The notes: generated by a model from the sequence alone, not told the origin. A DNA stretch of 64,000 bases from an uncultured delta proteobacterium (GCA_963729715.1 CAVSPA010000007.1:1-64000); one strand, 5' to 3'; shown: positions 12,747 to 59,088, numbered from the stretch's first letter. Numbers and translations are program-made.

Positions 12747-14228
12747 CTATTCTATCTTCCAGGATGTTCCGGTAGGGGTATCCTTGAGAATAATCTTCTT
12801 TTCCGCCAGGAGATGTCTGATCTCATCGGCCCTCTTCCAGTCCCTGGCCAGCCGGGATGCCCGCCGCTCTTCAATCAAACGGTCTATTTCATGCACATCC
12901 AAGCCACGCTTTCCGGCCTCCCTGTCACGATCCTTCATAAAATAATCATCAGGATCGTCGAGGAATAACCCCAAGACACTGCCGACTTCCGCAATGACCA
13001 TTCTCGCCTTATCCAGAACAAGGCGTGCCTCGGCGGATGCGGCAACTTTTTCATCCGTCATATAGCCGTTGACAAGTCTCACCGTATCGAAGATGTATCC
13101 CACCGCCCTCGGCGTGTTGAAATCATCATCCATAGCCTCTTTGAATCTATCCGGAAGCGAAGCAATTTTGTCGAGTATACCTCTATCCTTTCCGGAAAGT
13201 CTGTCCATGGTAACAGCGGAAAAATCTTCACCGGTCTCAAGCGCGTCCTTGACTGCTTTCAGCGTGGCATAAAACCGTTCCATGCCCATCCTCGCCTCGG
13301 CAAGTGACTCGCCCGAAAAGTCAACAGGCCCCTTGTAATGGCTCTGAAGCATAAAAAGTCTCACGACCTCCGGATGGTAATTCTTCAATATATCTTTAAT
13401 GGTGAAAAAATTGCCGAGTGACTTCGACATCTTCTCGCTGCTGACCTTTACAAAGCCGTTATGGATCCAAAATCTGGCGAGCGGTTTGCCGGTCGCCCCT
13501 TCCGACTGGGCAATCTCATTTTCGTGATGGGGAAATATCAAATCCTCTCCGCCGCCATGGATATCGAATGTATCTCCGAGAAACTCCTGGCTCATAATTG
13601 AACACTCGATATGCCACCCCGGTCTCCCCCTGCCCCAGGGACTCTCCCACCATGGCTCCCCTTCTTTGCTCGCTTTCCACAGGGCAAAGTCGAGGGGATA
13701 CCTTTTTTTCTCATTTACATCCACGCGGGCACCGGCCACCATTTCCTCCAGATTTCTGCCCGAAAGTTTCCCGTATCCTTTAAATTTCTCAACCGCATAA
13801 TAGATATCACCGTTGGCTTCATAGGCGAGGTCTTTGGCAAGGAGGATATTGATCAGCTTTATCATACCGGCGATGTGCTCCGTGGCCCTCGGTGCCACTG
13901 TGGGTCTCGCTATCCCGAGCGCATCCATGTCTTCGTCATGCTCTCTGATATACCTCTCCGATATTTCAGATATTGTCTTGCCCTCCGCATTGGCCTTCGT
14001 GATGATTTTATCATCCACGTCCGTAAAGTTCTTCACGTACGTGACATGATATCCCCTATACCGAAGATACCTTGTGATGACATCGAAAACTACTGCCGAA
14101 CGGGCATGGCCTACATGGCAGACATCATAAGCGGTGATGCCGCACACATACATGCTTACCTGTCCTTCAATAAGGGGGTCGAACGTCTCTTTCTTCTTTG
14201 AGAGGGTGTTGTATATTTTTATGGACAT
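12747..14228 (-). CDS. cysS: Cysteine--tRNA ligase (canonical)
   Basis: CGIT, HVGH, GRPGWHIECS, DIHGGGEDLIFPHHENEIAQS, KMSKS; all four Zn ligands intact. Confidence 0.98.
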   Translation of the reverse strand: MSIKIYNTLSKKKETFDPLIEGQVSMYVCGITAYDVCHVGHARSAVVFDVITRYLRYRGYHVTYVKNFTDVDDKIITKANAEGKTISEISERYIREHDEDMDALGIARPTVAPRATEHIAGMIKLINILLAKDLAYEANGDIYYAVEKFKGYGKLSGRNLEEMVAGARVDVNEKKRYPLDFALWKASKEGEPWWESPWGRGRPGWHIECSIMSQEFLGDTFDIHGGGEDLIFPHHENEIAQSEGATGKPLARFWIHNGFVKVSSEKMSKSLGNFFTIKDILKNYHPEVVRLFMLQSHYKGPVDFSGESLAEARMGMERFYATLKAVKDALETGEDFSAVTMDRLSGKDRGILDKIASLPDRFKEAMDDDFNTPRAVGYIFDTVRLVNGYMTDEKVAASAEARLVLDKARMVIAEVGSVLGLFLDDPDDYFMKDRDREAGKRGLDVHEIDRLIEERRASRLARDWKRADEIRHLLAEKKIILKDTPTGTSWKIE

Positions 14229-54438: not shown

Positions 54439-54984
54439 TTAATGTTCTCCAAAGACCTCAGCTGAAAATTTATAAACTTTGGCATCCTTATCTTTCCATG
54501 CATCCCGCTGAAGTCCGGCTTTGTAACAGGTTTCCTGAAGAAATGTCAAGCTATCCCAATTATATTCCGCGGCCACTTGCGGGAGCAGAAGGCCGGAATG
54601 AAACCCCTTAGTAATGTAAAGGCCGTGCATGCCCACTTCTATTTCATCTATGTTCTTAACCTGTTTCAGCGGGCTCATTACGGATATCTCGACGGTGATG
54701 TTCTTCAGTTCGTCCGGCTTTAATGGAGGAAAGCGTCGATCATCGAAGGCAGCGGCCAGAGCCATTTCTCCCACGGTCTTGTAAAGTGGCTTTCTCGCCT
54801 CGATATAGCCTATACAACCCCTGAGCTGACTGTGCTTTTTAAGCGTTACAAATGCTCCCTTCTTTTCATTCAGTACCTCCGAAGATAAATGAAATTCCGG
54901 GAGAGACCCGCCTGTTAGTCTGGCCTCTATTGTTTTTCTTACAACATCAAGAAGCGCCTTTTTGTCCAAGTCTGTCAACTCCAT
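54439..54984 (-). CDS. amrA: AmmeMemoRadiSam system protein A (AMMECR1 domain)
   Basis: GAFVTL, LRGCIG, AAFDDRRF, EISVMSP, GLLLPQVA, CYKAGL. Confidence 0.95.
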   Translation of the reverse strand: MELTDLDKKALLDVVRKTIEARLTGGSLPEFHLSSEVLNEKKGAFVTLKKHSQLRGCIGYIEARKPLYKTVGEMALAAAFDDRRFPPLKPDELKNITVEISVMSPLKQVKNIDEIEVGMHGLYITKGFHSGLLLPQVAAEYNWDSLTFLQETCYKAGLQRDAWKDKDAKVYKFSAEVFGEH

Positions 54985-55191
54985 AACGATACCTCCCCAT
55001 CATCCAAATAACATGCATGGGAAAACTTATTACAACTTTCAAGTAAGAGGGTGTAAGTGACTAATTCATTATTTTCTTAATTTGTGATCCGTCCATGGGT
55101 GCCTGCTTGGGGTCCATGTATTCAGGCGGCAGAACATGAGAAATCTACGGCACGATCAACTGCATGTGCAGACACCAAAGCTTTCTAAAAT

Positions 55192-56031
55192 CTAAGAATG
55201 CCGGCCCTTATAAAAGATAGCGGAAGCATAACCAACAACGCTGCTTTTATCTCCCGTTACATCTCCCGAATTGGCGTATTTCAACAATTTCGCCCTATTT
55301 GCACCCAATTTTTCTGAAACCATCATGGTCACGGCTGCCGGCCCTCCGCCGCAGGCCTCGCATAGATCTTTTTCCAAATCTTCGAGGAGACCCCTGCCAT
55401 CCATCTTTTCTATACGCTTGATCACCACCGAATCAAGCTTCACAGCCTGCTCATAAGAGTGGAAATGTGAGAGATCGGTACTTCCCACGATCAAGACATT
55501 CCTGCCATTTATCGCATTCACTATGCTCTCAGCCAGGTTTTCGCATGTTTCGCGGTCTTGCTCCCCCATAATAAGTGGCACAAAGCGAAATTCTCCGAGT
55601 GCCACTTGAAGAAAAGGGAGTTGAATCTCGAGTGAATGTTCCTGGGCATGAGCAGCCGGTATGTGGGATATCATTTCGCTTTGAGACATTATATCGTTTG
55701 CCAAGGTCACATCCACGGAGACAACGCCTAACGGGGTTTCATATCCGCCCCTGTTATATACGGAAACCCCGTGGAAAAATGCCCTATGGCTCGGGCCCAG
55801 AACCAAGACAGCATCAAAGGTTTTTCTGCGTACTATTTTGTAAGCTATTGCGGCAATCTGGCCTGAATAGACATATCCGGCGTGGGGAACAATAAGGCCT
55901 CTGATGCCGCCATCAATCACTACATCAGGCGCGTTGAGAAAAAAGTCCTCTATATCCGCCCGCAAAACCCTGGGGCTGCCAGGATACCAAGTCCCTGCGA
56001 TAACTGACTTTCTGACTTCCTTATCCATCAC
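55192..56031 (-). CDS. amrB: AmmeMemoRadiSam system protein B (MEMO1 family)
   Basis: AGTWYP, VPHAGYVYSG, GPSH, EHSLEIQLPFLQ, STDLSH, CG, YANSGD, VVGY. Confidence 0.95.
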   Translation of the reverse strand: MMDKEVRKSVIAGTWYPGSPRVLRADIEDFFLNAPDVVIDGGIRGLIVPHAGYVYSGQIAAIAYKIVRRKTFDAVLVLGPSHRAFFHGVSVYNRGGYETPLGVVSVDVTLANDIMSQSEMISHIPAAHAQEHSLEIQLPFLQVALGEFRFVPLIMGEQDRETCENLAESIVNAINGRNVLIVGSTDLSHFHSYEQAVKLDSVVIKRIEKMDGRGLLEDLEKDLCEACGGGPAAVTMMVSEKLGANRAKLLKYANSGDVTGDKSSVVGYASAIFYKGRHS

Positions 56032-56122: not shown

Positions 56123-58432
56123 CTATTTTAATCTCCATGTTACTCCGTCTGCTGTGTCGGAGATCTCAATTCCCATCGCAAGAAGCTTCTTCCTGATATC
56201 ATCAGAAGCCTTCCAATCACCGATTCTTCTCGCGCGTGCTCTCTCTTCGAGAAGACGAAGCGCATCATCGCTCAATGTCTCTTCCTCAAAATTCATGACC
56301 CCGAGAACGGCATCAATCCTCTTTAGGACATCGAGTACATTGTCCCTTTCCCTTTTACTCAACTGCCCGAGAGAGAGTGGAATACTGACCTTCCCTATAA
56401 ATTCAAAAAGAGAGGCCATTGTATCGGATATGTTGAAATCATCATCCATGGTATCGGAGAATCTCTGTTTGATATCATAGACAAGTTGATCAGCGTCCGG
56501 GTATCCTTCACCTGGAGTATAACGAATCAGGCGCTGAATAAATCTATCCAACTTCTTGACCGTATTTCTCGCCGTCTCTAAGGCACCGGCGGAAAAATTT
56601 AGAGGCTTACGGTAGTGGGTGCCGAGCAGAAAAAACCTGATTTGTCTGCCTCCATATCCCATTGTCTCGAGATCTTCTATGGTCTTGACGTTGTTTAAAG
56701 AGCGGGACATTTTCTTGCCGTCCACCATGACCAGTTCCGTATTGATCCAGTAGTTGGCCATCCGTTTGCCGGTTGCAGCTCTCCCTATGGCCATGACATT
56801 TTCACAGTGCGGAAAGATGACATCGGCTCCGCTCGCATGAATATCAATATTGTCCGCCAGATATTTAAGTGAAATTGCTGCACACTCAAGGTGCCAGCTG
56901 GGCCTCACGTTCCCCCAGCGGGTCTTGAAGTAAATCCCCCTTTTCAATTCATTTAGGGAAGACCTTTTCAGAAGAGTAAAATCCACGGGGCTGTCTTTTT
57001 CATAGTCATCAGATTCAATCGTCTTGCCGGGTTTCACCTTTTTCAGGTCAATGTTGGACAGACGACCATAATCGTCTATTTTTGATATGTCAAAGTAGAC
57101 GGACCTCAATTTTTCGTAGGCGTGGCCCCTCGCCACGAGTTTTTCAACCAGGTTCACCATGGCATCGACATTTTCGCTAGCCCGGGGATAGACCTTCTCT
57201 TGTTTGATATTCAAATTTTTTATGTCGCTGAGGAACCTGCTTGTGCATCTTTCCGTATACGTAGCCAAGTCCATGCTTGCGCGCTCGGCTTCCTTAATGG
57301 ATCTGTCGTTCAAATCAATTATGTTCATAATGTGTCTAACTTTAAAGCCTTTAAAGTCGAGGTAGCGTAGGATCAGATCGGAAACGACAAAACGCCGATA
57401 GTTGCCTACGTGGGGAACTTCATGGACAGTAGGCCCGCAAGAGTGCATCAGAACTTCTTCGGTATTGATTGGTTTGAAGAACTCCTTCTCTCTCGTCGAC
57501 GTGTTGTAGAGACGTAGGGTAGATTGCTTCTTATCGGCAAAGAGTTCCGTACTCAGATACCTCTCTCCGCCGTCAGGAAAAATCACAACAATGAGCCCAT
57601 CTTCCATTTCTCTTGCCTTCTGCATAGCTACATACATGGCAGCTCCTGAACTCATTCCTACAAAAAGACCTTCCTCCCCGGCCAACCTCCGTGCGGTTTC
57701 AAATGCATCTTCGTCGAGGATATTTATTTTCTCATCCAGCCGGTTCTTGTCATAAATGCCCGGTCGGTAAGATTCCTTCATATTTTTCAGACCCTGGATT
57801 TTGTGCTGCAGGTATGGTTCAACACCCACTATCTTGATATCAGGATTATATTCCTTGAGTCGCCTCGAAATACCCATAGCAGTGCCCGTCGTCCCCAAGG
57901 TTGCCACCACCATTGTCACAGCCCCATCCGTCTGCTGCCATATTTCTTCACCAGTACCGTGATAATGAGCCAGCGTATTATCAGCATTATTAAACTGGTC
58001 GGTGCCAAAATATTTTCCTGGATCCTTGAGCATCATGTTATATGCCACTTCGATGGCGCCATCCGTGCCGAGAATTGCCGGGGTCAAGTATAACTCAGCT
58101 CCCATGGCCTTAAGAATTCTCTTTCTTTCCTCACTGGCGGATTCAGACATAGCCAGGCATAATCTGTATCCCTTGGCGGCAGCAATAAGTGCCAGACCGA
58201 TGCCGGTATTGCCGCTCGTTGCCTCGAGGATAATCTTATCGCCCGACAATTCCCCCCTCTTTTCCGCTTCGTTAACCATATAGAGGGCTATCCTGTCCTT
58301 TACGGAGCCTCCTGGGTTAAAATATTCGAGCTTTGCATATATTCTAACCTTCTTGCTCGGATTAAGCTTACGGATTTCCACGAGGGGCGTATTTCCAATA
58401 CTTTCTATAATGCTCTTATACATTCTTTTCAT
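56123..58432 (-). CDS. Fusion of CysM-type PLP cysteine synthase (aa ~1-298) and a divergent cysteinyl-tRNA synthetase (aa ~304-769)
   Basis: N-terminal IGNTPL, NPGGSVKDR, TSGNTG, QF, GTTGT, SSG, PDGGERYLST. C-terminal LYNT, CGPT, HVGN, WHLEC, FPHCEN, KMSRS, MDDDFN and the anticodon domain. One uninterrupted ORF. Confidence 0.93.
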   Translation of the reverse strand: MKRMYKSIIESIGNTPLVEIRKLNPSKKVRIYAKLEYFNPGGSVKDRIALYMVNEAEKRGELSGDKIILEATSGNTGIGLALIAAAKGYRLCLAMSESASEERKRILKAMGAELYLTPAILGTDGAIEVAYNMMLKDPGKYFGTDQFNNADNTLAHYHGTGEEIWQQTDGAVTMVVATLGTTGTAMGISRRLKEYNPDIKIVGVEPYLQHKIQGLKNMKESYRPGIYDKNRLDEKINILDEDAFETARRLAGEEGLFVGMSSGAAMYVAMQKAREMEDGLIVVIFPDGGERYLSTELFADKKQSTLRLYNTSTREKEFFKPINTEEVLMHSCGPTVHEVPHVGNYRRFVVSDLILRYLDFKGFKVRHIMNIIDLNDRSIKEAERASMDLATYTERCTSRFLSDIKNLNIKQEKVYPRASENVDAMVNLVEKLVARGHAYEKLRSVYFDISKIDDYGRLSNIDLKKVKPGKTIESDDYEKDSPVDFTLLKRSSLNELKRGIYFKTRWGNVRPSWHLECAAISLKYLADNIDIHASGADVIFPHCENVMAIGRAATGKRMANYWINTELVMVDGKKMSRSLNNVKTIEDLETMGYGGRQIRFFLLGTHYRKPLNFSAGALETARNTVKKLDRFIQRLIRYTPGEGYPDADQLVYDIKQRFSDTMDDDFNISDTMASLFEFIGKVSIPLSLGQLSKRERDNVLDVLKRIDAVLGVMNFEEETLSDDALRLLEERARARRIGDWKASDDIRKKLLAMGIEISDTADGVTWRLK

Positions 58433-58671: not shown

Positions 58672-59088
58672 TCAACTGTCAAACTTGGGCACAGGAATTT
58701 TGAGGAATTGGACTCCTTCCTCCCTTAGCGCTTCTTCTTCGTTCTCCGTAGTGATGCCTTTGATATTCCGTCCTTCTTCCTCGCCGTGATGAATCTTCAA
58801 GGCCACTTCAGCAAACTTCTTGCCGACATCTTCGAAATTCTTGTCGAGGTATTCGCGAAACAACCTTAGAGCCTTCGGCATGGATGATTCTTCAGCATCC
58901 TTCCTGTTAGATGTCTTGATATCCTTTCCCATAATGGAAATTGTGGAGGGCACCATTCCTACGGCAGAACTTCCACACGCAGGACAGATTATCAGCTTTT
59001 GCGTCTGCTGTTCTTCAAATGAAGTTCTGTCGTTGAACCAGCCTTCGAATTTATGACCCTTTTCACATCTTAGATCGTATATGATCAT
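58672..59088 (-). CDS. DUF1178 family zinc-ribbon protein
   Basis: MIIYDLRCEKGHKFEGWF, CPACGS, FEDVGKKFAE.A.KIHHGE...IKG...L.EEG. Confidence 0.88.
   Translation of the reverse strand: MIIYDLRCEKGHKFEGWFNDRTSFEEQQTQKLIICPACGSSAVGMVPSTISIMGKDIKTSNRKDAEESSMPKALRLFREYLDKNFEDVGKKFAEVALKIHHGEEEGRNIKGITTENEEEALREEGVQFLKIPVPKFDS

Follow-up and report, generated by a model that had tools for sequence, protein, structure and literature searches.

A CysRS paralog fused to a CysM-type cysteine synthase: a candidate tRNA-Cys sensor in Syntrophales

A single reading frame in the window (the whole 64,000-nucleotide stretch of DNA that was analysed) joins a CysM-type cysteine synthase to a full-length paralog of cysteinyl-tRNA synthetase (CysRS). 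The CysRS half is a paralog by family and not a CysRS by function, as it scores above the TIGR00435 cut-off with five conserved active-site positions failing. Judged from sequence comparison, the family pattern appears to agree best with a domain that is coupled to the CysM half and senses tRNA-Cys without charging it, and we put the probability that the protein is an O-phosphoserine sulfhydrylase carrying a HisZ- or GCN2-like, non-charging tRNA-Cys sensor at a little over one half (about 0.55). Of 301 genomes sampled from the same phylum, one of sulfate reducers and syntrophs, 131 carry the fusion (frames of at least 600 aa, among the matches listed). In roughly half of these 131 no other cysteine synthase can be recognised, and databases call the fusion an ordinary cysteine--tRNA ligase, a name explained by its TIGR00435 score (389 bits, above the cut-off of 340). 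If our reading is true, the protein would be a class I counterpart of HisZ and GCN2, linking cysteine synthesis straight to tRNA charging, and would point to a phosphoserine route to cysteine that is widespread in sulfide-rich anaerobes. The features are as follows.

56123..58432, - strand: fusion ORF, 769 aa, CysM-type cysteine synthase plus full-length CysRS paralog in a single reading frame
57533..58432, - strand: CysM half, aa 1-300, with PLP lysine K45, carboxylate loop TSGNT, Q146 and K216; predicted O-phosphoserine sulfhydrylase
57779..57793, - strand: GLKNM motif of the CysM half, with K216, from alignment to M. tuberculosis and E. coli CysM
56123..57520, - strand: CysRS paralog half, aa 305-769 (465 C-terminal residues)
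57437..57439, - strand: C332, equivalent to Zn ligand C28, present in 159/161 clade members
57389..57412, - strand: HVGNYRRF, a HIGH variant; R346 is canonical R42 and R347 the gained family mark
57293..57325, - strand: NIIDLNDRSIK, with T68 replaced by I372 (alpha-amino contact gone, by MshC T83) and K73 by R377
56921..57115, - strand: connective-peptide region, with K441, T471, R490, L493, E495, L496, K497 and T504 family-specific
56882..56905, - strand: RPSWHLEC, with W513, H514 and C517 (C209), each 161/161
56795..56845, - strand: DIHASGAD...FPHCENV, with H542 (H234) retained, H235 replaced by C543 and E238 by V546
56732..56749, - strand: WINTEL, with H256 replaced by N564 (N 143/161, H 11/161)
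56699..56713, - strand: KMSRS, with K269 replaced by R577
56126..56275, - strand: anticodon-binding domain (PF23493), with R731, R735, W740, D744, R747 and D759
12747..14228, - strand: canonical cysS, 493 aa, housekeeping enzyme with every motif intact (TIGR00435, 564 bits)

A PLP-dependent cysteine synthase domain occupies residues 10-287 and is followed by a complete CysRS domain set; 56123-57520 (-), which an earlier note on this DNA had assigned to a CysRS domain, does correspond to residues 305-769 of the 769-aa frame. The predicted structure of the fusion has a pLDDT of 91 and a pTM of 0.78. Its closest homologs (the best 120 of 7667) are all fusions of like length with 70-95% identity, several of them from named Syntrophales, and among the structure matches listed there is no solved structure spanning the CysM and CysRS halves. 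A complex prediction for the two halves (score 0.23, mark 0.32) is counted on neither side. The connective-peptide region is a candidate coupling surface between them.

The amino-acid pocket and its conservation in Syntrophales

Substitutions were read by alignment to the canonical cysS of the window (34% identity) and, for E. coli numbering, to 1LI5. All of the motif pairs listed in the earlier note are present in the alignment with cysS (12747-14228), and the 1LI5 sequence bears out its account of the pocket: C28 (C332), C209 (C517) and H234 (H542) are kept, and E238 has become V546, H235 C543 and H256 N564, with K269 (R577) and K73 (R377) also replaced. Two further changes absent from that note are T68 to I372 and Y33 to H337. 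The anticodon residues were correctly described as intact, since the R/W/D/R set matches E. coli by alignment and PF23493 is present; R731, R735, W740, D744, R747 and D759 align with E. coli R423, R427, W432, D436, R439 and D451, which we take to be the residues that read the GCA anticodon. Two motifs presented as signs of rewiring are both there but are ordinary variants: HVGN is a common form of HIGH (N in 81/110 stand-alone-type domains, with S in 85/161 Syntrophales clade members), and PSWH is found in Borrelia CysRS 3SP1. Similarly, of the Arg residues said to be gained, R347 is a gain but R346 is canonical R42.

In E. coli CysRS the Zn ligands are C28, C209, H234 and E238, and the persulfide lysines are K73, K76, K266 and K269 (PMC7563103, available sections). 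It had been suggested that these lysines are altered, which holds for K73 and K269, both now Arg, but not for K266, kept in 161/161 clade members, nor for K76, which is Lys in this domain yet Lys in just 84/161 clade relatives. From equivalences derived from the alignment offset, T68 corresponds to MshC T83, which contacts the substrate alpha-amino group, and Y33 to an MshC Tyr proposed to shield the adenylate (PMC9736012, excerpted text). The CysRS half scores 184.3 bits against the MshC model TIGR03447, below its cut-off of 485.1. The label CysRS* used for this domain in the earlier note already belongs to a different paralog without an anticodon domain (PMC9437257, parts available).

C543 is unlikely to be the fourth Zn ligand that it had been proposed to be. 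It adjoins H542 rather than lying one helical turn on, the E238 position following four residues later within one helix (predicted, 536-554); in place of C543 the sister lineage L009 has Phe, and two of the 161 clade members have S or G. MshC binds cysteine via just the three ligands kept in this domain and the substrate thiol (PMC9736012, same excerpt).

Conservation was assessed in 161 distinct members of the Syntrophales clade. C517, H542, R346, R347 and K574 (K266) are present in all of them, position 546 is always V, I or L, position 372 always I or V, R577 occurs in 160, and C332 and C543 in 159 each, the exceptions at C543 being one S and one G. H37, G39, R42, G227, D229, K266, W205, H206 and the Zn triad are found in 159-161 of the 161, and G29 and T31 are also retained; about a quarter of all sites match the key positions in constancy. 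In 65 pairs with usable dS, from 41 genomic loci, dN/dS was 0.094 for CysM, 0.102 for the pocket-bearing residues 509-612, 0.161 for the whole CysRS domain and 0.274 for the anticodon domain, and the key pocket codons show synonymous variation at the 41 loci. The pocket substitutions are therefore under purifying selection in Syntrophales and are not due to drift, chance or decay; drift of a decaying domain, the outcome that the earlier note had set against its own proposal, is refuted within this order by C543, position 546 and a pocket dN/dS of about 0.10.

The paralog across its family

Conservation among fusion homologs, which that note had proposed to check, holds in Syntrophales, but elsewhere in the family the substitutions are lineage states. 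We aligned 224 CysRS domains, comprising fusions, 20 of the 120 closest matches and stand-alone representatives, and compared a paralog set of 119 rows (31 from Syntrophales, with a few near-duplicates) with 104 stand-alone-type domains. The paralogs split from the stand-alone-type domains with a tree support of 0.99 and bear three family marks, namely R347 (117/119 paralogs compared to 0/104 stand-alone), loss of the second KMSKS lysine K269 (Lys in 1/119 compared to 103/104) and a connective-peptide insertion. Stand-alone CysRS retain T68, H235 and E238 in 104/104 each and H256 and K269 in 103/104; the full canonical catalytic residue set is present in 98/104 of them and in 0/119 paralogs.

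State changes were counted by parsimony for the paralogs, the stand-alone change counts being invalid owing to rooting. H37, H40, T68, C209, D229, H235, E238 and K266 changed 4 to 13 times each on the tree (E238 7, H235 7, H37 13, D229 11), compared to zero changes for R42, D69 and the six anticodon positions, the latter being identical or occupied by a like residue in 119/119 paralogs. Losses of E238, H235, T68 and H256 recurred in different lineages, and among 83 non-Syntrophales fusions these residues are retained in 58, 57, 63 and 71 respectively. Position 238 turns V, I, L, S, T, Q or F over its seven changes, often where C28 and C209 (lost in 17/119 and 16/119 paralogs) are absent, and Val in such cases reads as hydrophobic filling. 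H234 (118/119), E236 (111/119) and N237 (118/119) are retained across the family; position 235, between them, holds at least nine different residues. Six fusions have lost C28, C209, HIGH and KMSKS together, but neither the anticodon residues nor the CysM motif. Since R347 is family-wide and many lineages that have it also retain E238, the gain of this Arg predates the loss of the acid and is independent of it.

We infer that the family ancestor had an altered ATP side (K269, the fourth residue of HIGH, G226 and the gained R347) with its Zn/cysteine pocket and tRNA contacts unchanged, and that lineages afterwards lost different parts of this domain. The outcome is a set of lineage mosaics, some of which hold the Zn pocket without the ATP motifs, while Syntrophales hold the ATP side better and have an altered amino-acid subsite. 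Syntrophales appear to have held on to the Zn triad as well as to the adenine pocket (H37, R42, G227, D229, K266) and to have remodelled the T68, H235, E238 and H256 subsite; with its ATP side kept and its amino-acid subsite changed, the Syntrophales form would be the member in which an assay could best tell a sensor from a new specificity.

Some loci depart from the common architecture. In P0124 (fused) and L002:183-2432 (adjacent), cysM is paired with a canonical-type CysRS with all motifs intact; these domains group with the stand-alone enzymes and may represent the starting state or a separate fusion. The L117 fusion (G198:C12:118500-123200) lies inside an open frame of 1403 codons and may have a further N-terminal domain, and three fusions (G021:C7:161332-163376, L206 in G197 and L209 in G070) are broken by a stop or frame change, which may reflect either assembly error or real decay.

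The CysM half, the route to cysteine and the genomic setting

K45, S73-T76, Q146 and K216 are invariant in 111/111 fusions, even where the CysRS half is dead. K216 of the GLKNM motif aligns with R210 of E. coli CysM and with R220, a residue involved in the choice of phosphoserine, in the ALRNM loop of M. tuberculosis CysM. The CysM half scores above the TIGR01136 cut-off (365.8 bits compared to 344.15) and just below that of the CysM equivalog (380.3 compared to 394.2). In E. coli-type CysM, use of thiosulfate is likewise marked by a basic residue at 216, and Phe at 147 has been reported as a mark of O-acetylserine preference (PMC12800425, in the text available); the residue after Q146 is Phe in 98/111 fusions, which counts against phosphoserine use, and Tyr in 13/111. 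E128, Y131, R135, K219 and Y222 are constant in fusions and variable in 31 stand-alone relatives, a pattern that would be expected of a surface meeting the other half.

The distribution of cysE was compared in the genomes of 61 relatives and, separately, in the 301 sampled genomes of the phylum. The fusion is the only cysteine synthase match in 19 of the 61 relatives, 17 of which are without cysE. Across the phylum sample, cysE is missing in 62/64 genomes with the fusion as only cysteine synthase and found in 63/67 with the fusion and a further synthase (both among the matches listed); it occurs in 0/17 genomes with a lone stand-alone close CysM-type enzyme and in 30/33 with a lone CysK-like one, all of these being counts over related, non-independent genomes with many incomplete assemblies, for which no statistical test is claimed. 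Of the fusion-only genomes, five that are 97-100% complete have SerA and SerC in 5/5 cases and no HTS, MetX match or Cys/Met gamma-family enzyme. We propose that the CysM half is a predicted O-phosphoserine sulfhydrylase making free cysteine from O-phosphoserine and sulfide, and on these patterns it looks to work independently of CysE.

The stand-alone CysM relatives noted above are the only cysteine synthase match in 17 genomes (e.g. G062, G072, G094, G106), none of which has cysE, and likely represent a wider phosphoserine route. Since they occur without the paralog, CysM catalysis should not need the CysRS half.

A full fusion-type domain occurs in 50 of the 61 relatives and a canonical cysS in 58; apparent loss of canonical cysS in the genus was rejected, as the three misses and one apparent frameshift are assembly gaps (contig gaps, an N gap). 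G160 and G327 have no canonical cysS match. At the level of matches, 129/131 fusion genomes (among the matches listed) have a second CysRS-family match, and no genome was found to rely on the fusion alone. The genome of origin carries one tRNA-Cys (GCA, U73), CysK, MetY, MetX and a CysE-like gene; SepRS was not found in it, and SepCysS was above cut-off in 0/61 relatives.

In the window, AMMECR1 and Memo-like genes lie downstream of the fusion (54439-56031) and DUF1178 upstream (58672-59088, -). DUF1178 precedes the fusion at 39/41 Syntrophales loci and a Memo-like gene follows it at 28/41, an arrangement not seen outside this order, where a scan of 32 neighbours at 16 loci revealed no conserved partner genes. 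An upstream RNA leader was considered and rejected, since across 41 loci the spacer can be shorter than 20 nt or as long as about 240 nt, inspection by eye revealed nothing common to them, and the spacer of the window folds worse than shuffled sequences (z +1.5). A third CysRS paralog of 405 aa without an anticodon domain is encoded at G000:C3:136266-137483 (-), equivalent to L191:1770-2984. It has HIGN, T68 and KMSKS intact, C209 replaced by D, H206 by N and HHENE by HHDYT, a pattern opposite to that of the fusion domain, and may be a ligase of another substrate. It adjoins a MATE-like gene, and similar matches occur in about 17/61 relatives, six of which were inspected. The same genome contains a 73-nt tRNA called Ser(GCT) without a long variable arm (G000:C16:17367-17439), possibly foreign or a pseudogene.

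Mechanism, rival explanations and known systems

As a tRNA-Cys sensor, the second alternative raised in the earlier note, the CysRS half would grip tRNA-Cys by its anticodon without charging it, the former adenylate site would take up the tRNA 3' end in the manner of the E. coli binary complex, and the charging state would be relayed to CysM via the conserved connective-peptide surface. The phosphoserine route has no cysteine-inhibited CysE step, and tuning of CysM output by tRNA-Cys sensing would supply the feedback otherwise missing from it. Candidate directions are activation by uncharged tRNA or inhibition by cysteine or Cys-tRNA, and the remodelled subsite of Syntrophales may favour the reading of uncharged tRNA. 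In the E. coli complex AMP occupies the place of the terminal A of tRNA-Cys (PMC5428304, portion available), which would account for adenine-pocket residues being kept without catalysis. The strongest points against a sensor are that the near-complete ATP side and Zn triad of Syntrophales exceed the obvious needs of tRNA binding, and that E. coli K266A and K269A have nearly full protein-synthesis activity (PMC7563103, available sections), so that K269R need not stop charging; the near-invariance of C543 is also left unaccounted for.

The activity of K269A also bears on whether the CysRS half has kept some, perhaps slow, charging with cysteine and passes the CysM product on to tRNA-Cys by channelling. 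We consider this unlikely even though the Zn triad, W205, H206, G29 and T31 are kept, the three protein ligands of that triad and the substrate thiol are what MshC uses to bind cysteine (PMC9736012, excerpted text), TIGR00435 is passed (389 compared to 340) and canonical-type cysM-CysRS pairs are known (P0124, L002), because T68, H235, E238 and K269 are changed in 161/161 clade members and H256 in 150/161, positions that stand-alone CysRS almost always keep, and no genome was found to rely on the fusion alone. The earlier note raised a different substrate, loss of the acid and gain of Arg admitting phosphoserine or S-sulfocysteine, which the pattern of substitutions does not support. In Syntrophales this would amount to an indirect route on one polypeptide, convergent with archaeal SepRS/SepCysS, in which a class I synthetase loads tRNA-Cys with phosphoserine (or S-sulfocysteine), to be turned into Cys-tRNA by the CysM half. 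The apparent phosphoserine link of the CysM half, the change and subsequent fixation of T68, H235 and E238 near the Syntrophales stem, the well-kept ATP-side residues and the absence of SepRS and SepCysS from the searches described above are consistent with such a route, but we regard it as improbable: R347 is family-wide (117/119) and uncoupled from loss of E238, the T68 alpha-amino contact is gone, neither Q146 nor the carboxylate loop of CysM varies or differs from the stand-alone enzymes, which argues for a free amino acid and not a tRNA ester as substrate, the same CysM persists in lineages whose paralog is without ATP motifs, and canonical cysS is retained.

Two further explanations seem to us to deserve little credence. 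The domain could use a vacant fourth Zn position to sense cysteine or sulfide as a free thiol, in the style of HisZ, or be a structural partner, with tRNA binding incidental; the Zn triad is indeed kept with E238 removed, and HisZ does sense a free amino acid (PMC9437257, parts available), but nothing in the family is more constant than the anticodon residues (119/119), whereas 17 of the 119 paralogs have lost C28 and 16 have lost C209. Equally doubtful is some other tRNA-Cys chemistry, e.g. deacylation of mischarged tRNA-Cys or cysteinyl or sulfur transfer through C543, which is nearly invariant in Syntrophales and lies at a conserved active-site His position, with H234, E236 and N237 retained family-wide; against this, position 235 takes at least nine residues across the family and no partner gene recurs across the phylum.

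No paper on a CysM-CysRS fusion was found in searches of open full text. The fusion is not mentioned in the available parts of reviews on cysteine encoding (PMC5424206, PMC8762117), synthetase paralogs (PMC9437257) and class I-like proteins (PMC2922099), nor in those of the GapMind papers (PMC7311316; 10.1101/2024.10.14.618325). Among known systems, E. coli CysS (1LI5, 1LI7, 1U0B) shares with the CysRS half its full domain set, its fold (TM-score 0.86 over the target compared to 1U0B), C28/C209/H234, W205/H206 and the anticodon residues. The fusion differs in the joined CysM, in the changed T68, H235, E238, H256, K269 and Y33, in the gained R347 and conserved connective-peptide insertion, and in having a canonical cysS alongside. 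MshC, a CysRS paralog and mycothiol ligase (3C8Z, 8HFM), has three equivalent protein Zn ligands, but keeps both alpha-amino threonines, activates cysteine and is shorter (413 aa). The O-phosphoserine sulfhydrylase CysM of M. tuberculosis (3DKI, 3DWG) resembles the CysM half in its independence of CysE and in the ALRNM-loop Arg with which K216 aligns, whereas the fusion mostly has Phe, not Tyr, after Q146 and carries a CysRS-like domain. CysRS* of Desulfobacterales (SelC*/SelB*) and SepRS-SepCysS are likewise non-canonical tRNA-Cys systems of related anaerobes; however, CysRS* has no anticodon domain, the best-kept part of the fusion domain, and SepRS is class II where the CysRS half is class I-type. 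GCN2 carries a HisRS-like domain and resembles the fusion as a proposed regulator, not a charger. HisZ, a HisRS paralog and the regulatory subunit of HisG, is similarly a synthetase paralog that belongs with the pathway making its cognate amino acid; it senses free histidine and provides a precedent for a regulatory synthetase paralog (PMC9437257, parts available). Unlike HisZ, the fusion domain is class I, covalently joined to its enzyme and has kept its anticodon domain, and its regulatory role is a proposal.
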